Positions 35,788 through 55,642 of a stretch of DNA of 60,852 nt are shown here, in pieces. The DNA is from an uncultured Candidatus Saccharibacteria bacterium. GTDB taxonomy: Bacteria > Patescibacteriota > Minisyncoccia > UBA6257 > 2-01-FULL-56-20. Below the pieces are notes generated by a model. It was not told where the DNA came from, searched no databases, and was given only the letters and a program-made list of their open reading frames with translations. Made by a program: the position numbers and the translations under genes. The stretch lies in NCBI GenBank assembly GCA_964484655.1, contig CAZAFA010000004.1:1-60852 (forward strand), read 5' to 3'. The first letter of the stretch is position 1. The number at the start of each line of letters is the position of its first letter.

Positions 35788-35862
35788 GGGAAAAGTTGGG
35801 GGTTGTGTCAATAAGTATAACGGTTCCCCCTCCCAGGACTTACAGGCCTGTGGATAGCCTCC

Positions 35863-38899: not shown

Positions 38900-39355
38900 T
38901 TACTCCCCCTCTGTCTGTATGGGAGCGCCCTCGCATCTGCTGAGGACGCAGAACGCGCGCGCCACGTTGCCACTGCGCCCGAGGGTCTTGATCGTCACGG
39001 TCTCCTCCGGATTGCAGTCGTCGACCGGGCCCCCGCTCTCCTCGAGGCAGCGCACCTCGACGCTCGCCCCGTTCCGGAAGCGCGGCAGCTCGGCGAGCGG
39101 GCAGTTCGTGCTGCCCGGATCGGTCTGGCAGATGAGGTTGTACAGGCCCCATTCGATGCCCGCGTCAGCGGCGAACACGGCCTTGGCGGAGTGGCCGACG
39201 TCGGCGCCCTGCCGGACCTGGTAGAGCATTAGCAGGCCCGCGATCGTCGTCGCCCCGAGCAGCGCGCCGCCGAGCGTGAGCACGGTGAGGATCATCACCT
39301 GCCCGTGCCGGCTTTCCGCGCTACTGCGGGAGGATCTCGATACGCGTCGATACAT
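38900..39355 (-). CDS. PilX-like minor pilin
   Basis: RHG|QVMILTVLTLGG hydrophobic N-terminus without Glu5; AVFAADAGIEWGLY. Start is uncertain; the nearest upstream ATG overlaps the previous gene by 35 nt. Confidence 0.65.
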   Translation of the reverse strand: MYRRVSRSSRSSAESRHGQVMILTVLTLGGALLGATTIAGLLMLYQVRQGADVGHSAKAVFAADAGIEWGLYNLICQTDPGSTNCPLAELPRFRNGASVEVRCLEESGGPVDDCNPEETVTIKTLGRSGNVARAFCVLSRCEGAPIQTEGE

Positions 39356-42086
39356 TGAACACGCGGACGCGCACATCCTGCTGGAATCCGTTGTCGCAAT
39401 TCAGGCGGTACGTCGTGCTGTACGGCGGCTGGTCCTGGCCGGAGCCGTTCTGGCCGCCGGTCGCGATCACCTGGCCGTTACGCGGCCCGCCGTTCACGCG
39501 GATGGTGCAGGAGGTCGGCTGCTGGCACTGCCACGGGAGCGTCGTGCTGCGCGGCGGCGGGATGAACAGGCGGTTCGGCGATGCGGAGAAGGTGCACAGT
39601 CCGGGCGTGCCGGTCACCGTGATGCCGGCCGAGGCGAACTCGCCCCCGTAGTTCGCGTAGACGCTGCCGTTGCCGGGGCTGTCGCCGCGGAACGCGCCGT
39701 TGCCCTGATGCGTCACGAAGCTGTCGCCATCCCAGTTCGCGCTTCCCGTCACGTTCTGGCGCGGCGCCGGCCCGTTCCCATCCGGGTCGTACCAGGCGGC
39801 GTAGCTCGCCGTGGAGCCGACCTGGATCTCGCGCGAGAACGGCTCGATGGTCAGAGAGGCGTCGCCTGGGTTGCGCACCTCGAGGTCGCCCGTCGCTGCC
39901 AGGTACTGGACCGGGTTCGTGCCCGGGATCGGGTACGACGCGTGCATCGTCGTGTTGCCTACCGCGACGCCGCGGTAGCGCCCGTCACCCGCGACCGTCG
40001 CGATGGCGTTGCTGCCGCTCGCCCAGTACGAGTCCGCGGTGACGTCGACGCCGTTGCCGACCGCCTGCCCGCCCGGATAGTAGTAGGCGCGGACGGAGAC
40101 CTCGGCGCCCACGTTCGTGAACGCGCTCGACGGCACGATCTCGACGTACCCGTCCTCGATGCATCCGCTCGGGGGGCAGTTCCGCACCTCGAGGACCGCC
40201 GAGGCCTGTAGGCCCGCGTAGCCCGCCCAGATCACGGTCGTTCCGGTCGCAGTGCCGCGGAACGTGCCCGGGCCCGTCGCGGTCGCCACTGCCGGCACGT
40301 CGGACCACCAGTCAGCGGGCGCGGTCACGCCGTACGGCTGCTGGGGACCGCTCGGCCCGTCAGGGTCGTAGGTCGCCGTGAACTGGCCGAACTGGCCGAT
40401 CCCGATCCGCTGGCTGGGAGGCGCGACGGTGAGCGTCGCGCCGCCGCCGGTCACGATGAGCTCGGCCTGGCAGTCCCGGGGCTGGACGCCCTGTGCGGTC
40501 GCGCGCAACGTTATGGGATAGGTGCCGGAAGGCGTGCTGCCGCTGGTCATCAGAACGACGAGCCCGTTGCGCGGCGTCGGCGGAAGCGTGAGCGTCGTGG
40601 AAGCCGCGGTCACGCCGGCCGGCAGTGCCGAGCTGACGCCCACCGTGACCTGGCCACTGAATCCTCCGGTGCCGGAGACACTGAAGGCGAAATCGGCGGG
40701 ATCGCCCGGCTGCACGGTACGCGAAAGCGTCGTGCAGGAAAGGCCTATGCCGGGGTTGCTGTCCCCGACCGTGATCGGGATTTCCACGATGTCGCCGAAC
40801 TGCTCGTTAGGCTGGTTGCCTCCGCCCACTTGCACCATCTGATAGCGGAGCGTGTAGATACCAGGCTCCCCGGGCGTAGTCACTGTGATTGGGAAATCCG
40901 TCGTCGCATCGAGATAGACATCGCGGAGCGGTACCTCAAAACGATTCACGTAGTTGTACTGCGTGCAAACCGTAGTGCCCCCTCCACCACCTGGCCCACA
41001 AGGCAGCGCGAGCGCTGTCGGGACAGCGACACCGAGCGCGCTGCTCATCAGGCTGCGTCGCATGTTGTTTGTCTGATTGGGGTTGTTGCCGCCATTGCCG
41101 CAACCACCTCCTCCAGGCTCAAACTCGCACTCCTCTCCGATTGCCCGCTCGTACGTAACGTTAATGTTCCGCTTATAGGGGAGCGTCGCCGGCGCAATAA
41201 GCTGCGCGGTCTGGTCGATGCGACGCAACACGAAGTTGCTCGACTGCACCACATAGCTGTCGTAGCAGATGTCGCCGTTATTCGGGACGCTATTCGCACA
41301 ATTGTTCCGTTCCGGCACCGCGATGCCATCTGAGTTCCAGGTCAGGCCCTTGTTCCGCATAGTGATGGCCGCCTGATAAGTCGAGGAAGCGTCCGCGGAG
41401 CGCGGTACGGTATCGGCGACATACTGCGCGTTTGGCGGCAGCACCTGCCGGACTGAGAGACCAATGCGTGCGCAGCCGGGGTCGTTGTCGCGGTGTTCGC
41501 CGTACGCCCAGCCACTCTCAGGCCCGCCCGACCACACCATGCCTGACGTACCTCTGCATGCGTTATTGTCCTTTTGATAGAAGTACTGCACGCCTGCCTG
41601 CACGTTGTCCATCTTCATGCCCGCTATCGGCATGTTGCGGTCCACGACCCAGATCTGGGCGCCCTTGATGTTGCCGGTCCCGTTGCTGACCTGGCCGCTG
41701 AGCCCGCCACCTTCGCTCGCCCACGGCGTGCACGTCATGTTGTACGGGATGCCGAGACAGAGCTTGAAGTCGCGGGTGTACTGCGTGCTCGGGCTGTGAT
41801 TGAGGATACGGACCTGGATGCAGTCCGAATCGTTAGCCCCACCGGTGGAGAAATAAGCGACGCCTTCGCCGTGGCCGCGCCACGCGGACATGTCCCGCGG
41901 ACAATCCTGGGGGAGCTCAGGTGTAGAATCGTTCATATCGTCGCCGATCCGGATCTGGACGTCGGGCGTACCGGACGGCGAGGTCGCATAGGCTACGAGG
42001 CCCGTCGCAACACCCGCGAGCGCGGAAATAACGAGTGCGCCGCCGATGCCGATGCCGAGGATCTTGCGGATGAGAGGAGAGTTCAT
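39321..42086 (-). CDS. Large secreted Ig-repeat adhesin-like protein (cassette copy 1)
   Basis: Sec-type signal (AYA); Trp/Cys-rich N-domain; three Ig-like repeats (two with YDPDG); C-terminal domain paralogous to 47691-50186. Confidence 0.75.
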   Translation of the reverse strand: MNSPLIRKILGIGIGGALVISALAGVATGLVAYATSPSGTPDVQIRIGDDMNDSTPELPQDCPRDMSAWRGHGEGVAYFSTGGANDSDCIQVRILNHSPSTQYTRDFKLCLGIPYNMTCTPWASEGGGLSGQVSNGTGNIKGAQIWVVDRNMPIAGMKMDNVQAGVQYFYQKDNNACRGTSGMVWSGGPESGWAYGEHRDNDPGCARIGLSVRQVLPPNAQYVADTVPRSADASSTYQAAITMRNKGLTWNSDGIAVPERNNCANSVPNNGDICYDSYVVQSSNFVLRRIDQTAQLIAPATLPYKRNINVTYERAIGEECEFEPGGGGCGNGGNNPNQTNNMRRSLMSSALGVAVPTALALPCGPGGGGGTTVCTQYNYVNRFEVPLRDVYLDATTDFPITVTTPGEPGIYTLRYQMVQVGGGNQPNEQFGDIVEIPITVGDSNPGIGLSCTTLSRTVQPGDPADFAFSVSGTGGFSGQVTVGVSSALPAGVTAASTTLTLPPTPRNGLVVLMTSGSTPSGTYPITLRATAQGVQPRDCQAELIVTGGGATLTVAPPSQRIGIGQFGQFTATYDPDGPSGPQQPYGVTAPADWWSDVPAVATATGPGTFRGTATGTTVIWAGYAGLQASAVLEVRNCPPSGCIEDGYVEIVPSSAFTNVGAEVSVRAYYYPGGQAVGNGVDVTADSYWASGSNAIATVAGDGRYRGVAVGNTTMHASYPIPGTNPVQYLAATGDLEVRNPGDASLTIEPFSREIQVGSTASYAAWYDPDGNGPAPRQNVTGSANWDGDSFVTHQGNGAFRGDSPGNGSVYANYGGEFASAGITVTGTPGLCTFSASPNRLFIPPPRSTTLPWQCQQPTSCTIRVNGGPRNGQVIATGGQNGSGQDQPPYSTTYRLNCDNGFQQDVRVRVFNVSTRIEILPQ

Positions 42087-42097
42087 GGGTCTAGGCT

Positions 42098-42574
42098 TTA
42101 CTGGTTTGAGGACGCGGGCGCGATCGTAATATTGACTGTAACCGCGGTGGACGAACCGCGCGCTACGAGCGATACCTGCATGCTCGTGCCATCGCGCTGC
42201 GCGAGGAACGCGGCGAACGTGCCGAGATCCTTCGTGTCATCTATGGTCCACCCCTGCTCCTTGAAATAGGCGGCGAACCGCTGCTGCTCTTCGGAGAGCG
42301 GCCGCGTCACGGTGTACGCGCGCGTCTCCTGGAAACGGCCATCGGGAGCGATCATGGATTCGTTCTGCGTGATCACGGCATCCTTCGGAAGCGGCAGGTC
42401 GCCCGGGAACCGGTCTGGCAGCTTCGACTTGTCGATCTGCATGACTTCGTACTGCGACACCGGCGGCTGATCCGCGCGATCGCGAGTGATGCGTTGGTAA
42501 GCGAGGTACCCGAGTAAGGCGAGCACGACCAAGCTAATCGCCAGGATAACCAGGGACCGGGAGGATTTGTCCAT
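42098..42574 (-). CDS. Small membrane-anchored protein (cassette copy 1 partner)
   Basis: N-terminal TM; FPGDLP...ITQN...AAYFKEQGWTI; paralog of 50191-50655; TACACT 6 nt before the ATG. Confidence 0.75.
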   Translation of the reverse strand: MDKSSRSLVILAISLVVLALLGYLAYQRITRDRADQPPVSQYEVMQIDKSKLPDRFPGDLPLPKDAVITQNESMIAPDGRFQETRAYTVTRPLSEEQQRFAAYFKEQGWTIDDTKDLGTFAAFLAQRDGTSMQVSLVARGSSTAVTVNITIAPASSNQ

Positions 42575-42586
42575 AAGGGAAGTGTA

Positions 42587-43096
42587 CTACGTGGCGAGAC
42601 TGCGGGCACTGACCGTCGTCTGGATACGGACCACGCTGGTGCTGATGCCCAGCTCGATCGGCGAGATCGACAGGCTGACGGTGACCCGTGCTGGATAGCC
42701 GTCGTCTTCCTGGGCGAATTGCAGCCGGAAGCGCAGGTCGCGGACGTTGACGTTCTCGGCGGTCAGCTGGAGGGTCCCCTGGTTATCCACAGTGCGCATG
42801 ATGCTGCCGCTCGTCCCGTTGTCCTGGAAGGCGTACGTGACCGCCTCGCCGCGCGCGTTGGTGAAGCTCAGGGTCGTGTCGGTGCCGGCGAAGTCCTTGC
42901 TCACGCGGATCTCGCGCGCCATCTGCTCGAGGACCAGCGAGACGTTGCTGTTGGCCGCCGCGAACGCGACGAGCTGGCGCTGGGTGCGGAGCGCCCGGAT
43001 GAAGGCTCCGGTCGCGATCGAGACCACTATCGCGAACAGCGAGAGCGAGACGAGCAGCTCGACGACAGTGAAGCCTGAACGGCGGGAGTTCCTCAT
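42587..43096 (-). CDS. PilW-like minor pilin
   Basis: Class III signal RRSG|FTVVELLVSL; real start at the ATGA overlap with the upstream gene. Confidence 0.85.
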   Translation of the reverse strand: MRNSRRSGFTVVELLVSLSLFAIVVSIATGAFIRALRTQRQLVAFAAANSNVSLVLEQMAREIRVSKDFAGTDTTLSFTNARGEAVTYAFQDNGTSGSIMRTVDNQGTLQLTAENVNVRDLRFRLQFAQEDDGYPARVTVSLSISPIELGISTSVVRIQTTVSARSLAT

Positions 43097-43662
43097 TCTG
43101 CGGTGGACGTGCTCGACGTGGACGCGGTGCCGGCCCCGCCCCAGTCGTAGAAGTGGTCCTCGAGGGTCACGGACGAATCGCCGCCGCCGCGCGCGCGCCA
43201 CTCGACGCGGCTGATGACGACTATCTCCTTGGCGTTCGGACCGGTGAGCGTGACGGATACCTTGCGCCGATACGTGGTCTCGATTCCAGTCTGAAGATAG
43301 GAATAGCTGCGTACGTTCGGATCGTACCAAAGCGTACGGCCGGGACTGACAAAAGGAGTCGGTCGTCGCTCCCAGGTGGTATCGGCATCGAGCTCCCAGT
43401 CGCAGGTGCTCGCGCATGCCTGGAATCCCTCGTAGTAGGGGCGCCCGGCGATGTAGTTGGAGTCGATGAGACTCTTGGTCACCTCGATGCCCTCCGCGGC
43501 GAGGTACGTGCCCACATAGGAGTCGGCGACCACGCGCGTGAGACCGATCGAGCGGTTGATGAGCGTGATCGTGCCGAGGAAGCCGACCAGTAGGAGGCTG
43601 ATGGCGATCAGCGCCTCGACGAGCGACTGCCCGCTCCTAGTATGTGATCTGGCCTGCCGCAT
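43093..43662 (-). CDS. PilV-like minor pilin
   Basis: RSG|QSLVEALIAI with Glu5; YLAAEGIE. Confidence 0.82.
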   Translation of the reverse strand: MRQARSHTRSGQSLVEALIAISLLLVGFLGTITLINRSIGLTRVVADSYVGTYLAAEGIEVTKSLIDSNYIAGRPYYEGFQACASTCDWELDADTTWERRPTPFVSPGRTLWYDPNVRSYSYLQTGIETTYRRKVSVTLTGPNAKEIVVISRVEWRARGGGDSSVTLEDHFYDWGGAGTASTSSTSTAE

Positions 43663-44185
43663 TCACGCTAACGATAGCATCCGACTCCTTGCCGCGGATG
43701 CCCATCCTGACCTTTCCGAGCCCGTTGGTGATGAGCGCCCCGTTCTCGTCGGCGACGAGGACGACCGGGTCGGGAGCGATGAAGATCACGTACGCGAGAT
43801 CCTGCCCGTTGCCGATGTTCCGGAATTCCAGTGAGGGCGTGAGCGTGAACGAAGACTGCTCGGCGACGTCGAACGACGACGCCTGGGTATCCACCACGGA
43901 ACGGACCCGGCAATCCGGGGGACGGTACGCGACGATGGCGTACGCGCGCGCGGCCCGGTCGATGCGCACCCCGTATCCGCAGGGCGCATCCCCGGTCCCG
44001 GTGTAGGTGGAGAGCGCAAGCGACTTCGCGCGCAGGATCAGCTGCGCCACACGCGCCTTCTCCGTGAAGAGGCGCAGCGTCTCGCGCGTGCTCGCGTTAT
44101 AGATGAGGATCACGGCGCAGAGCATCGCGGTCACGGCGAGGACCACCATGACCTCGACGAGCGTGAAGCCGGACCGGCGCGACAT
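43637..44185 (-). CDS. FimT/GspH-like minor pilin
   Basis: RRSG|FTLVEVMVVL; LRAKSLAL; TACAAT 6 nt before the ATG. Confidence 0.82.
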   Translation of the reverse strand: MSRRSGFTLVEVMVVLAVTAMLCAVILIYNASTRETLRLFTEKARVAQLILRAKSLALSTYTGTGDAPCGYGVRIDRAARAYAIVAYRPPDCRVRSVVDTQASSFDVAEQSSFTLTPSLEFRNIGNGQDLAYVIFIAPDPVVLVADENGALITNGLGKVRMGIRGKESDAIVSVNAAGQITY

Positions 44186-44218
44186 GGCGCTATTGTACCC
44201 CGTCGCCCCCACGGGCGC

Positions 44219-45088
44219 TCAGAGCAGGAGGAGCCCGAAATATGCCGTCGCCAGATGCGAGCCGAAGCCGAGTATGAGGAGTGCGGCGAGCGCGAGGAAG
44301 GGGCCGAACGGCAAGGCGCTCTTCATGCCCGCCCTGCCTGCGAGAAGCGCCGGGACGGCGGCGAGGCTGCCAAGCACGAACGCCAGGCCGACGAGCACGA
44401 CGCTGTCCGGCCACGCGAAGGCGATGCCGAGCGCAGCAGCGAGCTTCACGTCGCCGAACCCGATGCCGCGCCCGCGCGTGATGGCGAAGAGGACGAGGAG
44501 GATCCCGCAGGCGGCTGCCGCGCCGACGAGATGGCCGACCCACCAAGATTCGCGCAGGCCGGCGAGCATCGCGTAGCTCCCGAGGAAGGATCCGGTCGCG
44601 AACGTGAACATCGGCGCGGTCGCCCAGGCGGCCACGCCGCCGAGCGCCGCTATCGCGACCGAGGCCTCGTCAGGGATGAGGTAGTGCTCGAGATCGATCA
44701 GGGCGACGATCACCAGGAACAGGGCGATGCCGACCCAGCAGGCTGCCGCCACGGCGTATCGCCAGGGATCCAGCAGGTGCGCCGAGGACGCCGCGAGGCC
44801 GAGCGGCACCGTCATCACGGCGAGAGCGGTCCCGATCTCCGCGAGCGGATAACGGATGCTTATGGCCTGCCCGCATCCCCTGCAGCGGCCCCGCTGCAGG
44901 ACCCAGGAGAGGACCGGTACCAGCTCGAGCGGCCCGAGCGTCCTCCCGCAGCCCGGGCACCGCGAGCGGCCGCCCGCCGGCGCGAAGAGGAAGCGGTCCG
45001 GGTCGTACCGGAGCGCAACCGCGTTCGCGAAGCTGCCCAGCACGAGGCCGAGCGCTCCGTAGAGAGCGAGAAGCGATGCGGACGGCAC
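44219..45088 (-). CDS. pilD: Prepilin peptidase/methylase (A24)
   Basis: GSFANAV, RSRCPGC and GRCRGC zinc motifs, IDLEHYLIPD, GFGDVKL, LPFGPFL. Confidence 0.95.
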   Translation of the reverse strand: MPSASLLALYGALGLVLGSFANAVALRYDPDRFLFAPAGGRSRCPGCGRTLGPLELVPVLSWVLQRGRCRGCGQAISIRYPLAEIGTALAVMTVPLGLAASSAHLLDPWRYAVAAACWVGIALFLVIVALIDLEHYLIPDEASVAIAALGGVAAWATAPMFTFATGSFLGSYAMLAGLRESWWVGHLVGAAAACGILLVLFAITRGRGIGFGDVKLAAALGIAFAWPDSVVLVGLAFVLGSLAAVPALLAGRAGMKSALPFGPFLALAALLILGFGSHLATAYFGLLLL

Positions 45089-45091
45089 GGG

Positions 45092-45559
45092 CTACAGTTG
45101 CACGCAGTAGACCGGGTCGGCGCAATCGACGCCGATCACCGTGCCGTCGATATCGTCGCGCAGCTGCGGCGCGTTCGCGTTCTCGAGCGTAGCGGCCAGC
45201 ACGTAGTTGTCCCCGGATGTCGCGTAGACATAGGACTGGCCTTGCTTCGGATCGTTCGGGACCTTCGCTATGCCGAGAGCGCTGCCGGTGAGCGCAACGG
45301 CCATGTCCGACCATCCCTCGTCGCTCTGGACGACCGACCCGGTGCAGGTCGCGCCCGGCTCCGCCGGTCCGGGATAGGTGTTGCATTTGGCGAAATACAG
45401 CTGCAGTCCGTTCTGCACCTGGCGCAGGTCGCTGATGCGGCGGGTGTCACGGCCGTTGCGCTGCACCGGGCCGAGGCCGACGAGGGCCACGGAGGCGAGC
45501 GTCGCGATGATCGCGATGACGATGAGGATCTCGACGAGGGTGAAGCCGCGGCGAGCCAT
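45092..45559 (-). CDS. Type IVa major pilin-like protein 1
   Basis: RRG|FTLVEILIVIAII; RDTRRISDL; four Cys. Confidence 0.92.
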   Translation of the reverse strand: MARRGFTLVEILIVIAIIATLASVALVGLGPVQRNGRDTRRISDLRQVQNGLQLYFAKCNTYPGPAEPGATCTGSVVQSDEGWSDMAVALTGSALGIAKVPNDPKQGQSYVYATSGDNYVLAATLENANAPQLRDDIDGTVIGVDCADPVYCVQL

Positions 45560-45660
45560 ATCCCCTACAGCTGGACGCAGTAGACCGGGTCGGCGCAGTT
45601 CACGCCTTCCACCGTGCCGTCGATATCGTCGCGCAGCTGCGGCGCGTTCGCGTTCTCGAG
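45102..45660. repeat. 51-bp (45137-45187 = 45610-45660) and 23-bp (45102-45124 = 45575-45597) perfect direct repeats
   Basis: Base-by-base identity in the pilin C-terminal coding regions. Confidence 0.92.
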
Positions 45661-46025
45661 TGTTGCGCCCAGGACATAGCTGCTACCCGAGGTGCTGCCG
45701 TACATGTACGCGGCTCCCTGCCGGGGATCGTCAGGCACCTTCGAGACGCCGAGGTTGCTGCCGGTGAGTGCTCCCTGAAGGGAAGACCAGCCGCTGATGG
45801 CCGAGAAGCCCGTGCAATCCGTGCCCGCCTGCGCACCGCCCGGGTAATAGCCGCACTTCGCGTAGTAGAGTTCGACGCCGTTCTGCACCTGGCGCAGGTC
45901 GCTGATGCGGCGGGTGTCACGGCCGTTGCGCTGCACCGGGCCGAGGCCGACGAGGGCCACGGAGGCGAGCGTCGCGATGATCGCGATGACGATGAGGATC
46001 TCGACGAGGGTGAAGCCGCGGCGAG
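45408..46025. repeat. 148-bp perfect direct repeat (45408-45555 = 45878-46025)
   Basis: Base-by-base identity over the pilin N-terminal coding region; offset 470 bp. Confidence 0.95.
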
Positions 46026-46041
46026 TGGGGTTAGAGGGCAT
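45565..46041 (-). CDS. Type IVa major pilin-like protein 2
   Basis: Same N-terminus as pilin 1; divergent centre; TATACT 6 nt before the ATG. Confidence 0.92.
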   Translation of the reverse strand: MPSNPTRRGFTLVEILIVIAIIATLASVALVGLGPVQRNGRDTRRISDLRQVQNGVELYYAKCGYYPGGAQAGTDCTGFSAISGWSSLQGALTGSNLGVSKVPDDPRQGAAYMYGSTSGSSYVLGATLENANAPQLRDDIDGTVEGVNCADPVYCVQL

Positions 46042-46099
46042 GGCCGAAGTATACCAGAGAGGCGTAGGAAGCTGTGGAAAGCAGGACGCTAGCAGCCCC

Positions 46100-47311
46100 T
46101 TACTGAATCGTAGCGGTGAGGCGATACAGTGGGATGAGGATAGACGCGAACAGCAGGCCGACCAGCAGACCGACCACGATCATGAGCGTTGGCTGGATGA
46201 GGTCGACGAGGTTCGAGATCGTCGTGTCGGAATCACGGCCGTAGAAGCCTGCGAGGCGCGCGAACATGCGGTCAAGCTGGCCGGTCGCCTCCCCAACGAC
46301 CACCATCTGTGAGACCAGCGGCGGGAAGTAGTCCGGATACTTCGCCAGTGACGAGGAGAGCGAGGTCCCCTGGCGGACGTCGTCGGCGACGTCCATGAGC
46401 AGGTCCTGGTAGAGCACGTTGTTCACGCTTTGGCCGGCGATCTCGAGCGCCTGCGCCATCGGCACGCCTCCCTTAAGGAGCATCGCGATGGCGTTCGAGA
46501 GGCGCGTGAGCGTCAGCGGGAGGAAGACGCGCTTGAGCAGCGGAAAGCGCAGCTTGAGCTCGTCCCAGAGCGCCTTGCCCTCGTCGGTCTCGGCATAGGC
46601 GATGATCGTGAGGACCACGAAGAACCCGAGGAGCACGACCGCGGGCCACCACGTCCCGAAGAACGCGCCGGCGCCGAGGAGGGCACGCGTATAGAACGGG
46701 AGATCAACGCCGCTCTCGGCGAATACCGGCCCCAGCTGCGGGAACACGAAGCTCACCATGAGGAAGCCGACGACGACGAAGAGGCCGCCGATGATGCCCG
46801 GATAGATCATCGCCGAGCGCGCCTTCGTGATGAGCTCGTACTCCTTCTCCATGTAGTCGGCGAGGAAGCCGGTGACCTCCTCGAGGTTGCCGATGACTTC
46901 CGCCGAGCGGATCATGCTCACGTAGAAGCCCGGGAAGACGTCGCGGTGCCGCTCGAGCGCCTGCGAGAAGGAGAGGCCCGAGGTGATGTCCTCGGCGAGC
47001 TGCTGCACGATGCGGCGGAGCTCGGGCTGGTTCGTCTGCCCGTGGAGCGTCTTGAGCGCCTCGATCAGCGGCAGGCGGGCGCCGAGCAGCGTGGCGAACT
47101 GCCGCGCGAAGATGACCAGGTCCTTCTGCCGCACGCCCGTGAAGCGGCGCACGACGGCGTCATACCAGTGCTTCGAGTCGGCGGAGACCAGCGACAGGAT
47201 GAAGAGGTCGTGGCTCGTGAGGATCGTGATCGCCGCATCGCGGCCGGCCGCCTCGACGAAACCCACCTGGAGCTCGCCTTCCTTCGTCTTGGCCTGGTAC
47301 TTGAAGCGCAT
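46100..47311 (-). CDS. pilC: Type IV pilus platform protein
   Basis: Two T2SSF domains; FARQFATLLGARLP, SAEVIGNLE, GVPMAQAL, GEATGQLD. Confidence 0.95.
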   Translation of the reverse strand: MRFKYQAKTKEGELQVGFVEAAGRDAAITILTSHDLFILSLVSADSKHWYDAVVRRFTGVRQKDLVIFARQFATLLGARLPLIEALKTLHGQTNQPELRRIVQQLAEDITSGLSFSQALERHRDVFPGFYVSMIRSAEVIGNLEEVTGFLADYMEKEYELITKARSAMIYPGIIGGLFVVVGFLMVSFVFPQLGPVFAESGVDLPFYTRALLGAGAFFGTWWPAVVLLGFFVVLTIIAYAETDEGKALWDELKLRFPLLKRVFLPLTLTRLSNAIAMLLKGGVPMAQALEIAGQSVNNVLYQDLLMDVADDVRQGTSLSSSLAKYPDYFPPLVSQMVVVGEATGQLDRMFARLAGFYGRDSDTTISNLVDLIQPTLMIVVGLLVGLLFASILIPLYRLTATIQ

Positions 47312-47340
47312 CTACGGCCGCATTCTAGCAAATTCCCTAT

Positions 47341-47668
47341 AAAGACGTGTCCCCTCATGGGCGTGAGGGGACAGGAAGGTTTTTCACTCAGGGCGAGCTC
47401 GGAAGGGCGGTATGCGCTCTGTCAGGCATCATGGCAACGCAGCACGGGGCGCCTCCCACTGTCCGCAAGGGGTCCGCGGATTCGTAGAGAGCGCTGGCAT
47501 GCTGCCTGACGCAGGGGGGACCACCTTGATATGGGGGGTCGCTTGCTAGCAAGTATCTCCGGCTGAGATTAAGCCGTTTGTATGACGCGCGGGGTTATGA
47601 ACGATATGAATACGCGCGCCTACTGATTCCATCCTAACACGATATCTCCCGCTCGCGCGGGAGATATC
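47341..47668. other. Structured, ORF-free intergenic region inside the pilus locus
   Basis: Hairpins at 47348-47373 (10 bp) and 47641-47668 (12 bp); long-range stem 47421-47433/47498-47510; palindrome 47542-47553. Confidence 0.55.
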
Positions 47669-47690
47669 CACATTCATGAACTGCCAGCGC

Positions 47691-50186
47691 CTACCGCGGC
47701 GCGATCTCCACGCGCGTCCTGACATCGAAGACGCGCACCGTGTCCGTGAGCTCGACGTTCCCGCCGTAGCACGACAGGCGGTACGTCGTCGTGTACGGAG
47801 GCTGGTGTGGCACCGATCCGCGCTCCGTGCCCGTGCCGATCACGCTGCCGCCCTCGGTGTCGTTGCTGACGGTACAGGTCGTCGGCTCGTCGCAGGACCA
47901 GTTCAGCGTCGTCGTCTTCAGCGGCGGCACGAGCAGGGACCGCGGGTTCGCCGCGAAAGTGCACGCTCCCCCTCCGGTGGTGCCGCTCACGACAAGCTCG
48001 GCCTGCCTCGTCAGCCCCGCGTAAGCGGCGGCGACGCCGGTCTCGCCGGCCGCGACTCCGCGGAACCTTCCTCCGCCGAGCGATGCCGCGATGTTCGACG
48101 TAGCGGCCGACCAGGTCGATGCGGCCGTCACGTTCTGTTCCGTCTGGCTGCCGGATCCGTCCGGATCGTAGAACGCCTCGAACGGAGCGATGCCGCCGAC
48201 GGTCGTCACGTTGCGCAGCGGCGAGATGCGCATCGTCGGCGCGGTGGAGGTCGGGTTCCCGGGCGGCTCTACCGGTTCGCCGGTCACGTTGAGACGCGCG
48301 ATGGCCTGCATTCCGGAGTATGACGCGCGCACCTGGGTATTCCCGACTGCGGTCCCGCGCATCCTGCCGGGGCCGACGACCTCGGCGACGCCCGCGGTGC
48401 CGAGCGACCACGTCGAGTCCCCAGTCACTTGCGAGGCCGTCCCCGGGCCGAGCAGGCCGTCAGGGTCGTACCACGAGACATAGTTCGCCTCCGCGCCGAC
48501 GTCGATCAGGCGCAGCGACGGGCTGACCCAGAGCAACGGCTCGTTCGGCGCACCGACGGTCAGGTTGCTGTTGCACGACCCAGGCTGCATGCCCGCCGCC
48601 GAGGCCGCGAAGGTGATGGTCGAGGATCCGGCCGGCGTGTTGGACGCGGTCACCACCGACATCACGATCGTCGCCGATCCGGACGGGCCGATCGAGACCG
48701 TACGCGGCTCGGCCGTGGCGTTCGCGGGAAGCCCGGAGGCCGTGACGGTCACACTCGTCGTCGCCGAAGTGTTCTGGGCGCTGACGGTGACCGGGTACGG
48801 CGCCGTCATACCCGCCGTAACCACCTGCGCCGGCGCCTGGCAGAGGATGCCGATGCTCGAGGTCGAGGTACCGGACACGGAAATCGGGATCTGAGCCTCC
48901 TCGCCGAAGAGATACGGCTCGCTGCTCGCGAGATTGGTCCCCATCTGGAACCTGAGCACGTAATCGCCCGGTGCGCTGGTGCGCAGCTTGAACGGGAAGA
49001 CCGCGCTCACGTTCTGCTGGACCGGAACCGCCGGCGTTTCGGAGATCTCGGTGAGGTAGTACGTGTAAGTCACGCAGGGCTGTCCGGGAGGAGGGGGCTG
49101 AGGCGCTGCCCATGCAGCAGGCACGCCCGCGCGTACGAGCCGCTCGATCCAGGATCCCGGCGCCCGCACGTTCGGATTGGGCGGATCGGGCGGCTCGGGG
49201 CAGATCGTCGCGGTGACCGCCCGCGACGTGTACGTGACCTGGATGACGCGTTCGTACTGGAATGCGGTCGCGGGCGCGTTCGTGCGCGGATCGATCAGCG
49301 TGATGGCCTCCAGGCCGTCGCGACGCATGAGCTTCTCGGTTTGCGAGGTGACGATTCTGGTGAAGGTGCAGCTCGCGCCATCCTCCTGGGGCGGCTCGTT
49401 CACGTTCCAGGAATCGCACTCGCTCGTGCGGCTGAGCTCGGTCAGGGACTGCCAGGCGCGCGAACCGGTGTTACGCATGGTCACCGACGTGTTGCCGTAG
49501 AGCGTCTGCGGGGTCGCGGTCGCCGGAATCGTGGTCGCGACGTAGCGCGCGTCGAGCGTGCTGGGGTCGAGCACGTCGGCCTCGAGACCGATCTTGGCCT
49601 TGTGCACGTCGTGCGTCTTATACGCCCAGCTCGACAGGCCGCCGCCTGCGGCGGTCCATGGCGAATAGGCCATCAGGCCCGAGCCGTCCACCTGGACCTT
49701 GAGCCGCGCATTGCGGATCTGTACGCCGCTCGGCAGCGGCCGGGTCTCGATCCTGACCCTGGCGCAGTTCTGGTTGTCGTTCGAGCTCCCCTCCTGGGCC
49801 CACTCGCCCCAGCCGCCTCCCTGGCTGGCCCAGCCGGACCAGCTGACATTCGTCAGATTATTCCCGCTGCAGCCGTTGTCATCCGAAAGCTGCAGGCCGA
49901 CGCGGAAGTCGCGCGTGAAGCTGCTGCCGGCCGAGAGGCCGACCTTGATACAGTCGAAATCCTTGTTGTTGCCGCCGTCGCCGACGAGCGGCGTCCACCC
50001 GCCGTCCGGATTCGCCGTCGGCGTCGCGCCGGCCTCGCCGCATCCGGAAGCGTTGTCGCCAACGTTGACGGAGACGCTCGGCGCAGGCGCGCTCTGCGCC
50101 TTCACGTACGCTACGAATCCCCCACCGATCGCGAGCGCGAGGACAAGGAGGGAGATGCGAGCGGTCCTGCTGAGATGGGTAAGCAT
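47691..50186 (-). CDS. Large secreted Ig-repeat adhesin-like protein (cassette copy 2)
   Basis: Signal (VKA); Trp/Cys-rich N-domain; two YDPDG Ig-like repeats; C-terminus matches the 921-aa paralog. Confidence 0.75.
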   Translation of the reverse strand: MLTHLSRTARISLLVLALAIGGGFVAYVKAQSAPAPSVSVNVGDNASGCGEAGATPTANPDGGWTPLVGDGGNNKDFDCIKVGLSAGSSFTRDFRVGLQLSDDNGCSGNNLTNVSWSGWASQGGGWGEWAQEGSSNDNQNCARVRIETRPLPSGVQIRNARLKVQVDGSGLMAYSPWTAAGGGLSSWAYKTHDVHKAKIGLEADVLDPSTLDARYVATTIPATATPQTLYGNTSVTMRNTGSRAWQSLTELSRTSECDSWNVNEPPQEDGASCTFTRIVTSQTEKLMRRDGLEAITLIDPRTNAPATAFQYERVIQVTYTSRAVTATICPEPPDPPNPNVRAPGSWIERLVRAGVPAAWAAPQPPPPGQPCVTYTYYLTEISETPAVPVQQNVSAVFPFKLRTSAPGDYVLRFQMGTNLASSEPYLFGEEAQIPISVSGTSTSSIGILCQAPAQVVTAGMTAPYPVTVSAQNTSATTSVTVTASGLPANATAEPRTVSIGPSGSATIVMSVVTASNTPAGSSTITFAASAAGMQPGSCNSNLTVGAPNEPLLWVSPSLRLIDVGAEANYVSWYDPDGLLGPGTASQVTGDSTWSLGTAGVAEVVGPGRMRGTAVGNTQVRASYSGMQAIARLNVTGEPVEPPGNPTSTAPTMRISPLRNVTTVGGIAPFEAFYDPDGSGSQTEQNVTAASTWSAATSNIAASLGGGRFRGVAAGETGVAAAYAGLTRQAELVVSGTTGGGACTFAANPRSLLVPPLKTTTLNWSCDEPTTCTVSNDTEGGSVIGTGTERGSVPHQPPYTTTYRLSCYGGNVELTDTVRVFDVRTRVEIAPR

Positions 50187-50190
50187 GGTT

Positions 50191-50655
50191 CTATTTGTTA
50201 GTGATCGGCCGAGCCGGCGACTGCATCAGCGTTACATTGACCACGGTCTTCCCGCCCCCGATCTCGAAGGCCGTCAGGAGCTGCGTGGCATCCTTCTCGG
50301 CGAGGAGTGTGGCGCGCTGCGGCGGCGTCGCAGTCTCATCGAGAATCGTCCAGCCGTTCTCCTGGAAGTACGCGACGTAGCCAGCCTTGTGTTCCTCGAG
50401 TCCCTCGTCGGTGAGATAGACCTGCGTCCACTGCGCGGAGCGGCCGTCGCCGGCCATGAAGTTCTGTAGGATGGCTCCGTCGCGGTCGAAGGGGAGCCCC
50501 TGCGGGAACACGGAATCGACCTCCTCGAGGGAGGTCGCCTGGCCGGTCTCGACCGGCTTCTCTCTGTGATAGCTCCAGTAGATGCCTGCGACGAGGAGGA
50601 GCACCAACGCCGCTACGGCCGCGGCCCGGACCCGGGTATCTTGGAATCCGTTCAT
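50191..50655 (-). CDS. Small membrane-anchored protein (cassette copy 2 partner)
   Basis: N-terminal TM; FPQGLP...ILQN...VAYFQENGWTI; TATAAT 6 nt before the ATG. Confidence 0.75.
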   Translation of the reverse strand: MNGFQDTRVRAAAVAALVLLLVAGIYWSYHREKPVETGQATSLEEVDSVFPQGLPFDRDGAILQNFMAGDGRSAQWTQVYLTDEGLEEHKAGYVAYFQENGWTILDETATPPQRATLLAEKDATQLLTAFEIGGGKTVVNVTLMQSPARPITNK

Positions 50656-50698
50656 GTGCGCATTATACCATGCGCGCTATCCCCAGATTCCGCGGGCC

Positions 50699-51769
50699 TC
50701 AGATGCGCTCGAGCAGGATGCGCAGCTCGCTCGGGTTGAGCGAGTACGTCTCGGCCACTTCCAACGTCGCCTGCTGGTCGCGCACCAGGCGCGCGAGAGA
50801 GCGGTTGAGCGAGACCATCCCCTCCTGGAGGCTCGTCTCGATGACGAGATCGATCTCGTAGAACTTCCGCTCGCGGATGAGGTTCTTGATGGCGGAATTC
50901 ACGATCATCACCTCGAGCGCCGGGACGCGCCCGCCGCCGTTGCGCGGCACGAGGCGCTGGCTGACGATCGCCACGAGCGTGGAAGCGAGCTGGCTGACCA
51001 CCTGCCCCTGCTGCTCGGGCGGGAACGAGTCCACGATGCGGTCGATGGTCTGCGAGGCGGAGTTGGTGTGCAGCGTCGAGAAGACGAGGTGGCCCGTCTC
51101 GGCGGCGGACATCGCGGTCGCGATGGAGGCCCCGTCGCGCATCTCGCCGATCATGACCACGTCCGGGTCCTGGCGCAGGATGGTGCGCAGGCCGTCGGCG
51201 AAGCTCGCGGTGTCGGAGCCGACCTCGCGCTGGCTGACGATCGCGCGGTCCTGCGCGAAGACGTACTCGATCGGGTCCTCGACGGTGATGATGTGGTCCG
51301 CGCGCGTGTGGTTCACCTCGTCGAGCAGCGCCGCGAGCGTCGTGGACTTGCCGTGGCCGGCGGGGCCGACGAGCAGGATGAAGCCCTGGGTGAGCTTCGT
51401 GAAATCATGCAGGATCGGCGGCAGGCCGAGCTCCTCGACGGTGCGAATCGTGCTCGGCACGAGACGGAGCGCCGCGGCGAGATAGCCGCGCTGGTAGTAC
51501 ACGTTCGCGCGGAAGCGCGCCTTCTCCTCGAGCGTGTACGCGAAGTCCACCTGGCGGTCCCGCTGCAGGATCTCCTTCTGTATCGGCGTGAGGAGCTCCA
51601 TGGTGAGGCCCTCTGCGGCCTCCGGGGTCACGAGGTCGTACTGCTGGAGCTCGATGAGCGCTCCGTCGACGCGGATGGACGGGCGGCGCCCGACGGCGAT
51701 GTGAAGGTCCGACGCGTTCTGCTGCGCGGTCGCGACGAGCAGGTCCGCGAGCTGCTGGCGGTAATCCAT
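50699..51769 (-). CDS. pilT: Type IV pilus retraction ATPase
   Basis: GPAGHGKSTT, EDPIE, RQDPDV, AETGHLVFSTLHT, AIKNLIRE. Confidence 0.95.
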   Translation of the reverse strand: MDYRQQLADLLVATAQQNASDLHIAVGRRPSIRVDGALIELQQYDLVTPEAAEGLTMELLTPIQKEILQRDRQVDFAYTLEEKARFRANVYYQRGYLAAALRLVPSTIRTVEELGLPPILHDFTKLTQGFILLVGPAGHGKSTTLAALLDEVNHTRADHIITVEDPIEYVFAQDRAIVSQREVGSDTASFADGLRTILRQDPDVVMIGEMRDGASIATAMSAAETGHLVFSTLHTNSASQTIDRIVDSFPPEQQGQVVSQLASTLVAIVSQRLVPRNGGGRVPALEVMIVNSAIKNLIRERKFYEIDLVIETSLQEGMVSLNRSLARLVRDQQATLEVAETYSLNPSELRILLERI

Positions 51770-51806
51770 GCGCGCATTGTAGCAGGCGCGCGCCGGCAAC
51801 GCTCGG

Positions 51807-52343
51807 CTACTCGCGTACGACGCGGAAGACGAAGCGGTAATCCGCCGCGCTCGTCGGAACGCCGGCGGCAGGGTACGGGCTCACGTTCATGAGCGTTACG
51901 CTCTCGTTGCCGGTCCTTGCCGTATCCCCGGGCGACAGGACCTGCTCGCGCGTCCCGAGCGCGCTGCTGATGCGCACGTGGACGCGCACGCGTCCGGCCT
52001 GGATGCACTGCACGCCGCTGGGGCAGCGGCTGTCCTCGACGACCGCGAGCGGCGTCACGGCGATGCCGTAGGCAGTTGCGGTCTGGCCCAGCGCGCCGCC
52101 GATGTCGGCCGAACCCTTCTGCGGCTGCGGCGCGACGACTACGGTCCGTGACGGCGGGGCAGCCGCGGGCGCGGGCACGACGACGGTTCCCGGTACGTAG
52201 GCCGTTCCCGGGACGATCCCCCCGACGTAGGCCGTCTGCATCGCGGGCTGGCTCCGCCCGCCGAACAGGAATATGAGGAGGTACGCCGCGCCGGTGAGCA
52301 CGACGACCGCGGCGAATATGGCGAGGGTGGTACGCGTCTCCAT
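51807..52343 (-). CDS. Membrane-anchored protein with a DSRCP-x4-C motif
   Basis: N-terminal TM, Pro-rich linker, EDSRCPSGVQCIQAG. Confidence 0.7.
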   Translation of the reverse strand: METRTTLAIFAAVVVLTGAAYLLIFLFGGRSQPAMQTAYVGGIVPGTAYVPGTVVVPAPAAAPPSRTVVVAPQPQKGSADIGGALGQTATAYGIAVTPLAVVEDSRCPSGVQCIQAGRVRVHVRISSALGTREQVLSPGDTARTGNESVTLMNVSPYPAAGVPTSAADYRFVFRVVRE

Positions 52344-52373
52344 ACCGTCTAGGACGGGCAGGCGCCTGCAGCC

Positions 52374-54101
52374 TTACTCCTCGTTGGTCTCCTTGAGCAC
52401 CTCCTCGAAGAGGACCTGTCCGGCGAGCGCCTTGAGCAGGCCGTCCTGGCGCATGGTCAGCGCGCCCTGCGCCGCGGACTGGTCGCGGATCGCGGAGGCG
52501 GAGGCGCCGGTGGTGACGATCTTCTCGATCTCGCGCGTCATCTTGATGACCTCGTAGAGCGCGACGCGGCCGAGCGTGCCGCGGCCGTGGCACGCGTCGC
52601 ATCCGGGCGAGCGCCAAAGCTTGTACGGCGGCTGCGGCTTCTCGACGTTCGCGGGCATGCGCGCGACCTCGCGCGCGATCTCCTCCGCAGCGGCTGGCGA
52701 GGGGTCCTCCTGCTGCTTGCACGTCTGGCAGAGCCGCCCGACGAGGCGCTGCGCGACCATGAGGTTGAGCGCCGCCGGCAGCAGGAACGGCTCGACGCCC
52801 ATGTCGATCAGGCGCGGGATGACGCCCGCGGCGTCGTTGGTGTGCAGCGTCGAGAGCACGATGTGACCGGTGAGGGCCGCGTTGACCGCGAGATCCGCCG
52901 TCTCGCGATCGCGGATCTCGCCGACCATGATCACGTCCGGGTCCTGGCGCAGGATCTGGCGCAGGCCCGCGGCGAAGTCGTAGCCGATCTCCGGACGGAC
53001 CTGCGACTGGTTCACGCCCTCGACGAAGTACTCCACCGGATCCTCGAGGGATACGATGTTCACCTTCTCCGTATTGATCCGCTGCAGCGCGGCGTAGAGC
53101 GTGGTCGTCTTACCGGACCCGGTCGGACCCGTGACCAGGACCATGCCGTACGGCTCGGCAAGCGCCTCCTCGACGGCCTCGAGGTTGCGCCCGGAGAGGC
53201 CGAGCTCCTCGAAGCTGCGGAGGCCCGTCTCCGGGTCGAGGATGCGGATCGCCATCTTCTCGCCGAGCGGCGTCGGGAAGGTCGCGACGCGAAAGTCGAT
53301 CTCCTTGCCCATGAGGAACGCGCGGAAGCGGCCGTCCTGCGGCACGCGGTGCTCGTCGATCTTGAGCTCGGATCGCACCTTCACCTGCGCGATCATCTGC
53401 TCGCTGATCTCCTTGGGCAGGAGCGCCGCCTGTCGCAGCTCGCCGTCAACGCGGAAGCGGATGCGCAGTCCCTTCTCCTCGGGCTCGAGGTGCACGTCGG
53501 ACGCGCCGCCCTGGATCGCCTCCTTGAGCGTGCGCGCGACGACGCGGATGATGGGCGCGTCGTCCCCGCTCTTTCCTTCTTCCTCGAGGTCTGTCACGCG
53601 ACGCGCCTGCTGCCCGGTCCCGCCGGTCTTCGTCCGGTACGCGTGCACCGCCTCCTGGATGTCGTCCTGGAACGGCGAGTAGGCGCGCATCGCGCGCTGC
53701 CAGTCCCCGGAGCTGACGAGGAAGACGCCGAGGTTGAGACGGTGCTGCCGCGCGAGGAACTTGAGCGCCTCCTGCGCGCGCTGGTCGTCGGGATTGACCA
53801 TGCCTACCACGAGGTTGCTCTCGGTGCTGCTGAGCGGCACGACCTGGTACGTGCGCGCGGTCTCCTCGGGCACGTACTGGAACGCCTTGGTATCGAGCTG
53901 GTCAGGTATGGCGAATCGCGGGACCCGCAGCGCGGCGGACTTGGCGTCCGCGATGGCCCCGTCGTCTACCTTGCCCTCCTTCATGATCACCTCCTCGAGT
54001 GGCAGGCCGCTCTCGGCGGCCGAACGCGCGAGGCGGATGGCCGTCGTCTCGTCGATGAGCCCTGCTCCGCGCAGCGCAGCAAGCAGCTGGTCGCCGCTCA
54101 T
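52374..54101 (-). CDS. pilB: Type IV pilus assembly ATPase
   Basis: N-terminal T2SSE_N domain, PQDGRF, GPTGSGKTT, EDPVE, tetracysteine CQTC/CDAC. Confidence 0.96.
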   Translation of the reverse strand: MSGDQLLAALRGAGLIDETTAIRLARSAAESGLPLEEVIMKEGKVDDGAIADAKSAALRVPRFAIPDQLDTKAFQYVPEETARTYQVVPLSSTESNLVVGMVNPDDQRAQEALKFLARQHRLNLGVFLVSSGDWQRAMRAYSPFQDDIQEAVHAYRTKTGGTGQQARRVTDLEEEGKSGDDAPIIRVVARTLKEAIQGGASDVHLEPEEKGLRIRFRVDGELRQAALLPKEISEQMIAQVKVRSELKIDEHRVPQDGRFRAFLMGKEIDFRVATFPTPLGEKMAIRILDPETGLRSFEELGLSGRNLEAVEEALAEPYGMVLVTGPTGSGKTTTLYAALQRINTEKVNIVSLEDPVEYFVEGVNQSQVRPEIGYDFAAGLRQILRQDPDVIMVGEIRDRETADLAVNAALTGHIVLSTLHTNDAAGVIPRLIDMGVEPFLLPAALNLMVAQRLVGRLCQTCKQQEDPSPAAAEEIAREVARMPANVEKPQPPYKLWRSPGCDACHGRGTLGRVALYEVIKMTREIEKIVTTGASASAIRDQSAAQGALTMRQDGLLKALAGQVLFEEVLKETNEE

Positions 54102-54102
54102 G

Positions 54103-54396
54103 TTAAGGCTGGAACGGGTTCGGGCGACCAGTCTGCGGCGCAGGCATGTCCGGCGCCTGCGGCTTCAGCGTCTGGAACGCCGGGCTCTGCACGACGGCGT
54201 CCGGATCGAGCTTCACGGTCGCGATCGAGTTCACGTCCTTGAGCGAGGTCGGGGTCGCGAGGTTCGGGATGACGTCCGGATGCTTGAAGAAGAGGAAGTA
54301 CGCGCCGACGACGATCACGAGCAGGATGGCTATCCAGATGATCATCCGGATCGTGCCGCCTTTCCCGGTGCGCTCCTGTTCGATGACGATGGCCAT
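54103..54396 (-). CDS. Small PilP-position membrane protein
   Basis: Follows pilO with a TAATG overlap; one TM; ends in GRPNPFQP. Confidence 0.65.
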   Translation of the reverse strand: MAIVIEQERTGKGGTIRMIIWIAILLVIVVGAYFLFFKHPDVIPNLATPTSLKDVNSIATVKLDPDAVVQSPAFQTLKPQAPDMPAPQTGRPNPFQP

Positions 54397-54989: not shown

Positions 54990-54990
54990 G

Positions 54991-55608: not shown

Positions 55609-55642
55609 GCACCAACTATATCACATCAGGCAGGGCGATCCG

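Follow-up and report, generated by a model that had tools for sequence, protein, structure and literature searches.

How do two neighbouring genes come to share stretches of DNA without a single mismatch when the sequence lying between these stretches has diverged to saturation? The question is raised by two type IV pilin genes, here called pilA-up and pilA-dn, which stand in tandem at positions 45092–46041 of a 60,852-nucleotide (nt) stretch of DNA assigned to an uncultured Candidatus Saccharibacteria bacterium (contig CAZAFA010000004.1 of assembly GCA_964484655.1; the whole stretch is referred to below as the window). The answer that we consider likely is that short-tract gene conversion recently homogenised the DNA coding for the N-terminal helix (α1), together with part of the C-terminal DNA, of a resident pilin and a diverged tandem pilin, the two probably being mixed in one filament.

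Both genes are on the minus strand. pilA-up (45565–46041), which is transcribed first, encodes a 158-residue prepilin beginning MPSNPTRRG↓FTLVE, and pilA-dn (45092–45559) one of 155 residues beginning MARRG↓FTLVE. The leaders thus differ, and both prepilins carry one and the same site for the prepilin peptidase PilD, RRG↓FTLVE. Each has a Pfam N_methyl match (E = 2.7e-8 and 33.5 bits for pilA-up, E = 7.4e-7 and 28.9 bits for pilA-dn; cut-off 21.2) and the hallmarks of a class III signal peptide: a short basic leader, Gly at −1, Phe at +1, Glu at +5 and a hydrophobic N terminus. A 5-nt spacer, GGGAT (45560–45564, minus strand), separates the pilA-up stop codon from the pilA-dn ATG. The proteins are 77% identical overall and the same over mature residues 1–46. 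At the DNA level, an earlier note made from the sequence alone had claimed exact blocks of 148, 51 and 23 nt, and all three are present, identical at third codon positions as well. The 148-nt block (N block; 45878–46025 in pilA-up, 45408–45555 in pilA-dn) codes for R7–N54 of pilA-up, that is, the cleavage site and α1, and cannot be extended on either side. The 51-nt block (LENANAPQLRDDIDGTV; 45610–45660 and 45137–45187, respectively) and the 23-nt block coding for CADPVYC (45575–45597 and 45102–45124) lie in the C-terminal part (C block). The repeats are in direct orientation, with the copies of the 148- and 51-nt blocks 470–473 nt apart, and enclose a core (45661–45877 in pilA-up, 45188–45407 in pilA-dn) that has only ~60% nt identity between the two genes and yields peptides unique to each pilin, for example from GVELYYAKCGYYPGGAQAGTDCTGF versus GLQLYFAKCNTYPGPAEPGATCTGS. 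The earlier note was right that this core is divergent, but it had put it at about 60 codons with an indel, and we find ~75 alignment columns with two indels, of 2 and 1 codons.

We quantified the contrast in a protein-guided codon alignment of the two genes, with synonymous and non-synonymous distances (dS, dN) estimated by region according to Nei–Gojobori. The N block is a run of 48 consecutive identical codons. Of the 75 columns of the core, 3 are gaps and 16 hold identical codons, the codons differing synonymously in 26 and non-synonymously in 30. In the final 31, 26 codons are identical, 3 synonymous and 2 non-synonymous. Synonymous differences number 0/48 in the N block versus 26/41 in the core (Fisher P = 3e-12), and 3/29 in the C block (P = 7e-6 versus the core). 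Accordingly, the N block has a dS of 0 and the C block one of 0.24, and in the core the proportion of synonymous differences (pS) is 0.73 (dS ~2.8, saturated) with dN at 0.36. No identical run longer than 62 nt arose when the 95 differences were permuted 100,000 times over the 459 aligned nt, compared to the 148 nt observed. The C-terminal pattern is patchy, with identical stretches of 51 and 23 nt separated by 12 nt of which 6 differ and, as the earlier note had pointed out (GTG CAA versus GTC CAG), two synonymous changes in the last codons. Identity of the blocks around a divergent core is a signature of recombination, far beyond chance. As for the core itself, the 26/41 synonymous differences match full saturation with the codon usage of the genome's surface genes (23.5 ± 3.0 expected, P = 0.25), whose G+C content at third codon positions (GC3) is low. 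Selection for extra nucleotide divergence in the cores was considered, as 26/41 exceeds saturation under the average codon usage of the genome (18.6, P = 0.009), but was discarded given that it does not do so under surface-gene usage. A side observation concerns base composition: GC3 is ~0.80 in both pilin cores, 0.98 in the N block and ~0.90 in the genome, single-copy pilin cores of high-GC relatives having 0.90–0.96, and low values (0.72–0.83) are also found in the genome's minor pilins and large surface proteins (42098–43417, 39321–42086, 34285–35811 and 7817–10237). The low GC3 of the cores could stem from imported DNA, from relaxed codon selection or from GC-biased conversion raising the value of the block.

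Comparison with relatives indicates what the identity of the N block means. In the seven close relatives whose DNA was compared (73–84% protein identity), the N block differs from that of the window by 2–5 amino acids and, synonymously, at 12–27 of 48 codons (76–87.5% nt identity), and even those with an N-block GC3 of 0.92–0.96 still differ at 12–14 synonymous codons. Likewise, the tandem pilins of three other loci (L041, L053 and L033) are 100% identical in N-terminal protein sequence, yet have many synonymous differences. Since relatives differ at 12–27 synonymous codons, the identity reflects recent common ancestry of the DNA and not protein or codon constraint. Both window copies moreover have I19 (in ILIVIAII), where all listed relatives have V, and this shared isoleucine is a derived residue.

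The cores have a different history. The pilin family comprises 273 matches, one of them labelled Liptonbacteria, and in ~22 distinct related loci a single pilin lies between pilC and pilD, as determined from gene calls (L001, L003–L006 and L024), single tblastn matches (L001–L021) and a survey of all 107 loci fetched, among which no tandem pilin pair was found in the closer relatives. In a tree built from the cores only, that of pilA-up nested with the relatives' pilins P0002–P0009 (70–78% core identity); that of pilA-dn was on a long branch, with at most 58% identity to anything and 56% to its own paralogue. A search of the pilA-dn core and tail against 5.8 billion proteins gave its own paralogue as the best non-self match (67%). 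pilA-dn keeps 23 of the 23 residues invariant across the family. An exact-protein contig lookup of the window's pilin returned no match on record. The pair is hence mosaic in ancestry. pilA-up is the resident, vertically inherited orthologue of the relatives' single pilin, and pilA-dn an added, lineage-specific paralogue with an orphan core, which is either as old as or older than the whole sampled clade, or imported from an unsampled lineage. Recent duplication with fast divergence of the core is excluded.

That two copies exist was checked in three wastewater metagenome runs of one study (X1–X3), which hold the contig at 98% of sampled words, using Logan contigs and unitigs (k = 31) rather than raw reads. 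The contigs end exactly at the repeats, and the 148- and 51-nt blocks form separate unitigs with depths of 31.2/27.7 in X1, 43.4/42.5 in X2 and 18.2/19.6 in X3, compared to 14.6/16.4, 23.7/20.3 and 8.2/9.0, respectively, for the unitigs of the two cores (single-depth unitigs 45631–45907 for pilA-up and 45158–45437 for pilA-dn), a block-to-core ratio of ~2:1 in all three. A 114-nt junction unitig (45526–45639) that runs through the pilA-dn N block, the spacer and the 3′ end of pilA-up is present in X1, X2 and X3. With block unitigs about twice as deep as those of the cores and the junction unitig in every run, the two tandem copies with identical blocks are real; the assembly collapse against which the earlier note had cautioned is not seen. 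As a gauge of how frequent deletions or chimeras are, the depth ratios are noisy (junction 0.44–0.81 of the flank, cores 0.58–1.05) and no single-copy model fits them consistently. The X1–X3 contigs had no variant letters, joints or alternative unitigs, although rare variants are lost from contigs and exchange across the repeats leaves the set of 31-mers unchanged. No run holding one core only was found, the two cores always co-occurring. The exact 148-nt repeat exceeds the k-mers usual in assembly, so that metagenome bins built from short reads may readily contain such a locus in collapsed form or with its cores exchanged.

Related strains in two wastewater runs from other studies (X5 and X6) bear on when the blocks became identical. 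X5 has a 200-nt contig on 45417–45617, covering the pilA-dn N block, the spacer and the 3′ end of pilA-up, mismatched at 4 positions and lacking 1 nt of the spacer, and X6 has contigs on 45324–45538 (pilA-dn core and N block, 8 mismatches), on 45575–45875 (pilA-up core, 20/301) and in pilC (9/151). The related strains in X5 and X6 thus carry the tandem junction and both cores at 93–98% identity, and the pair must be older than a strain divergence of 2–6%. Their pilA-dn N blocks differ from that of the window at 3 sites (X5) and 6 sites (X6; 6/131), all of them synonymous third positions, and sister strains in all vary at six synonymous sites of the block, namely 45416, 45449, 45458, 45464, 45494 and 45497. 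Had the two N blocks of the window evolved independently since the strain split, ~6.8 differences between them would be expected, but none is seen (Poisson P = 0.001; P = 0.0014 in a three-lineage conditional test), which speaks for homogenisation after the split and so for gene conversion. The N block therefore has the behaviour of a segment in concerted evolution, with 0/148 differences within the genome versus 6/131 to the orthologous block of X6, next to a core with a pS of 0.73. Of the ongoing homogenisation with a diversifying exposed loop envisaged in the earlier note, recent homogenisation of the assembly segment is borne out by these sister strains, but the core is anciently diverged and saturated rather than diversifying. 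Two small differences were also noted in the X5 strain, whose spacer has 4 nt (5 in the window) and whose pilA-up ends in TAA (TAG in the window).

The boundaries of the blocks can be related to the structure of the protein. AlphaFold2 (AF2) models built with 56 homologues (predicted local distance difference test score 90.2 for pilA-up and 87.5 for pilA-dn) have one and the same pilin fold, with a long N-terminal helix α1 (residues 12–63 in pilA-up, 8–59 in pilA-dn) and a small α/β head with three main DSSP strands plus short bridges. In pilA-up, α1 is followed by a loop, a short helix (85–94) and strands at 113–116, 123–127 and 153–157. On these models, the 148-nt block corresponds to the PilD site and most of α1, the predicted core of the filament. 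The divergent part comprises the end of α1, the exposed α–β loop (modelled with the lowest confidence in pilA-dn), helix 85–94 of pilA-up and the first β strands, and the C block comprises the last helix and strands with a conserved C149/C155 pair. A profile search of the PDB matched PilE, PilA, GspG and the Geobacter pilin through α1, and a Foldseek search of the PDB produced nothing beyond weak and generic matches to pilins (best E = 0.056), none of which allowed a structural relative of the head to be named.

Conversion as the molecular route is what we infer from these data, and it could have operated as follows. pilA-dn would have joined the resident pilA-up in one transcription unit, in a lineage whose relatives carry one major pilin. 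Non-reciprocal, short-tract recombination between the direct repeats would then, in recent times, have overwritten the 148-nt segment coding for the cleavage site and α1 and, to a lesser extent, the C-terminal segment (51 + 23 nt). The tracts presumably cannot run into the ~60%-identical core, and the cores would in this way stay distinct. The patchiness of the C block suggests several small tracts, in favour of conversion. With the N segment homogenised by conversion, the two pilins share the PilD site and the first 46 mature residues; both prepilins would then be processed and polymerised by one machine, and probably mix in one filament showing two different surfaces, as do PilE1 and PilE2 of Streptococcus sanguinis.

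Several points weigh against this interpretation. The X5 and X6 contigs that cover an N block are all anchored in pilA-dn and none reaches the N block of pilA-up; the estimate of recency comes from few contigs at 2–4x depth, and assumes that the pair was inherited and not independently acquired. One recent conversion event and a process still under way would look alike, the window contains neither recA nor mismatch-repair genes, and the de Bruijn graph permits the order of the two cores to be swapped. As to function, no RNA runs holding the locus were found that would speak for expression of either copy, and co-assembly in one filament, which we regard as probable, is argued by analogy only.

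The same signature might arise in other ways. In an unlikely scenario, a pilin gene was duplicated in tandem not long ago and one of the cores then gave way to imported DNA, the N and C blocks serving as homology arms and their identity being a leftover of the duplication. This would explain the sharp block boundaries, the orphan core of pilA-dn and the confinement of the second copy to one lineage. Replacement of pilin alleles also fits a further strain, in a 2024 sludge run (X4, depth 2–5x), that is ~93% identical to the window in pilD (44804–45070) and pilC (46275–46648) and in which neither pilin core was matched at 80% identity or more, suggesting that, between close strains, the entire content of the pilin position is swapped for another. 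Patescibacteria are naturally competent. For Saccharibacteria, competence is reported (PMC10187176). However, the pair predates the split from the X5 and X6 strains, so that about 7 differences between the N blocks would be expected, when there are none, and the patchy C block resembles several small tracts rather than one arm. Targeted hypermutation of one core after a recent duplication, by a diversity-generating retroelement or the like, is the least credible of all the explanations considered. Such retroelements are common in Patescibacteria, but the core mismatches are not adenine-specific (the pilA-dn base is C at 27, G at 27, A at 21 and T at 11), indels separate the cores as well, and the changes fall on synonymous and non-synonymous sites alike. 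Selection on the nucleotide sequence itself, whether extreme codon optimisation or an RNA or DNA element within the block, could be read into the N-block GC3 of 0.98 and its low content of rare codons (1/48); it is nevertheless extremely improbable given the synonymous variation in relatives of comparable GC3 and at six sites among sister strains, and the sole hairpin found (45402–45417) is weak and in one copy only. Even harder to sustain is an assembly artefact, with two strain alleles stitched in tandem or repeats collapsed to a consensus: metagenome assemblies such as this one are well known to go wrong at repeats that exceed k, but the junction unitig, the ~2x block depth and the lack of bubbles or variant letters in X1–X3 contradict it, and the same junction occurs in the independent study that yielded X5.

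The remaining alternative, and the one that the earlier note had drawn from Neisseria pilE/pilS, is programmed variation, or active shuffling, deletion or expansion that would make the population heterogeneous. Direct repeats of 148 and 51 nt at a distance of ~470 nt are long enough for RecA-dependent exchange, and conserved blocks flank a variable segment as they do in pilE. We nonetheless judge this very unlikely. Both copies are complete, with start codons and signal peptides, and belong to one putative unit. Searches of the 60.8-kb window with both genes (blastn at word size 7, and tblastn) revealed no truncated or otherwise partial, silent pilS-like cassettes, and matched only the two pilin genes and the α1 segment of a minor pilin at 44102–44185. 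No G-quadruplex (G4) motif (G3+N1–7 x4) occurs on either strand of the whole window. The deleted, chimeric or expanded arrays that the earlier note proposed to look for did not appear among the k = 31 contigs of X1–X3, a weak test as recombinants across the repeats make no new 31-mers, and with the ~2:1 depth and the co-occurrence of the cores there is no evidence for an active mechanism of variation, deletion or chimera formation. The earlier note's further proposal of phage-receptor escape or host switching is speculation. An invertible pilin of the Moraxella type (Q/I, Piv) was also examined and rejected, given that the repeats are direct and that neither neighbour, pilC or pilD, is a recombinase.

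Setting the pair beside known systems shows which of its features are familiar. In Neisseria, the variable part moves from promoterless, 5′-truncated silent cassettes into one expression locus, aided by a G4. The resemblance lies in non-reciprocal recombination between pilin copies and in conserved blocks flanking variable segments; the difference is that here it is the conserved parts that are homogenised, with both copies complete and probably in one transcription unit. Concerted evolution of duplicated genes is also familiar from tufA/tufB of enterobacteria. In the tandem lpl paralogue cluster of Staphylococcus aureus it proceeds by partial gene conversion (PMC2568036), so that partial concerted evolution of tandem paralogues is a known phenomenon in bacteria. 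As with lpl and tufA/tufB, the converted paralogues here are more alike within the genome than are orthologues, with sharp boundaries and incongruent ancestry, but here conversion is limited to roughly one third to one half of the 0.47-kb gene and coincides with the helix of the pilin filament core, and the host belongs to an uncultured lineage of Patescibacteria.

By analogy, the closest functional counterpart, and the most likely working mode, is that of S. sanguinis PilE1/PilE2, two tandem major pilins that form a heteropolymeric type IV pilus (PMC6497953, PMC10628169, PMC4832360), with co-assembly demonstrated at a 4:3 ratio and in stochastic order (PMC6497953, PMC10628169). To have two near-twin major pilins at one locus has been called unusual, and the filament the only known heteropolymeric bacterial structure (PMC10628169, PMC6497953). 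The two systems have in common a monoderm-type cluster with two major pilin genes, ~77–80% protein identity, identical N termini and differences in the globular part that include the α1–β1 loop, and the adjacency that such a heteropolymer would call for is found here, the genes being 5 nt apart and their products identical over mature residues 1–46 and at 77% of positions overall. They differ in that co-assembly has been demonstrated in S. sanguinis and is inferred here, in that the pilin families are unrelated beyond α1 and in that the second copy here has an anciently diverged core. Within Patescibacteria, the TM7x Saccharibacteria use two pili, T4P-1 and T4P-2, for host binding and twitching (PMC11623550). 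These resemble the system described here in having small lollipop-shaped major pilins and many minor pilins and in lacking a secretin, but are two separate systems with major pilins of their own at different loci, and not tandem near-twins at one locus.

The 107 fetched loci were also scanned for adjacent pilins. Many tandem pilin arrays occur in more distant Patescibacteria, most of them without homogenisation at the DNA level: those of L033, L034, L041, L047 and L053 lack an exact 5′ block despite near-identical N-terminal protein sequences. Three other loci, however, have an exact 5′ block with a divergent core, and the signature is therefore not unique to the genome of the window. In L083 (2483–3412), a groundwater locus of order pilT-pilC-pilA-pilA′-pilD with an unrelated pilin family, the block spans 144 nt, the leaders differ, and identical codons amount to 48/49 at the 5′ end versus 21/42 elsewhere (P = 4e-8). 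In L068 (1958–3007) the leader and 24 codons (72 nt) are shared (24/24 versus 23/42 identical codons, P = 3e-5), and in L062 (1924–2827) 15 codons (45 nt).

What the pair means for the biology of the organism is less certain. As observed, the locus is a clean and fairly ordinary case of partial gene conversion that leaves the current understanding of gene conversion and of pili unchanged. A bolder and doubtful proposition is that identity of the α1 block is a selected, recurrent design of Patescibacteria, keeping pilins with distinct surfaces compatible with one PilD and assembly machine so that they co-polymerise into mosaic filaments. Were it to hold, each pilus would offer an obligate episymbiont at least two binding or antigenic surfaces, the genes themselves would supply a recombination substrate through which cores could be gained, lost or swapped, and L083, L068 and L062 would be convergent cases and not accidents of recent duplication. 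Few surface machines are conserved in Patescibacteria, and type IV pili are one of them; cultivated Saccharibacteria depend on these pili to bind hosts, to compete and to move (PMC11623550). Pilus biologists should find it useful to have another candidate for a heteropolymer, from a remote phylogenetic position, together with a process that would keep its subunits compatible, and the locus offers a concrete target for metaproteomics of wastewater communities. It is also a clear-cut natural case in which conversion tracts end where divergence sets in within a gene of 0.47 kb.

Features that could govern expression of the pair were sought upstream of each gene. By eye and by comparison with relatives, we identified an extended −10 element, TGgTATACT (46048–46056, minus strand), as the probable promoter 6 nt upstream of the pilA-up ATG (46041), and similar elements (TGnTAnAcT) lie 6–7 nt before the pilin ATG in L001, L003, L005, L023, L024, L025 and L026. 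A strict two-hexamer σ70 scan upstream of pilA-up gave no promoter, and for pilA-dn there is no extended −10, the 5-nt spacer being without a promoter or a properly spaced Shine–Dalgarno sequence. The earlier note's assertion that only the upstream pilin has a −10 box is hence upheld for the extended element at pilA-up and its absence at pilA-dn, but not by the σ70 scan. As an element 6–7 nt from the ATG leaves no room for a 5′ untranslated region with a Shine–Dalgarno sequence, the major-pilin mRNA is probably leaderless in the window and across the clade. In P0006 (L026), the true start codon probably lies 3 codons downstream of the annotated one. Because the pilA-dn ATG comes 5 nt after the pilA-up stop codon and pilD starts 3 nt after pilA-dn, co-transcription of pilA-up, pilA-dn and pilD and coupled translation would be expected. 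A literature search revealed nothing specific on concerted evolution of pilins or on leaderless mRNAs in Patescibacteria.

Within a type IV pilus cluster of monoderm type, the pair takes the place of the major pilin in the order pilC-pilA-pilD. This cluster, complete and secretin-less, is on the minus strand, and its machinery genes and pilins span 44219–56806, so that the PilB and PilT ATPases, PilC, PilD and PilM are all encoded on the strand of the pilins: pilM (55643–56806), pilB (52374–54101) and pilT (50699–51799), called from Pfam T2SSE, MshEN and PilM_2 matches, the platform-protein gene pilC (46100–47311; T2SSF, E = 1.1e-60) directly upstream of pilA-up, and pilD (44219–45088; A24_N_bact and Peptidase_A24), which starts 3 nt past the pilA-dn stop codon. 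The order pilC-pilin-pilD is kept in relatives. Downstream of pilD on the same strand are three minor pilins with N_methyl matches (43637–44212, 43093–43662 and 42587–43417) and, next to them, an open reading frame (ORF) of 158 residues without a Pfam match (42098–42574). Elsewhere in the window the genes are ordinary housekeeping ones, coding for leucyl- and methionyl-tRNA synthetases, L25, glyceraldehyde-3-phosphate dehydrogenase, LigA and pentose-phosphate enzymes.

The host is a high-GC, Parcubacteria/Paceibacterota-like genome of Patescibacteria from wastewater. The best matches of its pilC among species-representative genomes (63–64% identity) are all from Patescibacteria (Parcubacteria, Paceibacterota, Liptonbacteria, Minisyncoccia and bins labelled ‘Saccharibacteria’). 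The GC content of the contig is 67% (GC3 ~0.9), which is high for a genome of this group, and base composition is very variable in the clade, GC3 ranging from ~0.45 to 0.96 among close relatives of the pilin.

Some further observations were made in and around the cluster. The longest ORF at 42587–43417 has 276 residues, overlaps the preceding minor pilin gene (43093–43662) and has its prepilin motif at residues 111–135; translation probably begins further inside the ORF, which would make the product a minor pilin of ~170 residues. In L025 (contig of GCA_021733565.1), a 384-residue protein with a weak N_methyl match (1096–2250) sits upstream of the pilin in place of pilC. An ORF of 831 residues without a Pfam match lies between pilT and pilC (47691–50186) and one of 921 residues, with a Big_2 match below threshold, follows the minor pilins (39321–42086), where relatives likewise encode a protein of more than 1000 residues; all of these are candidate pilus-associated adhesins.

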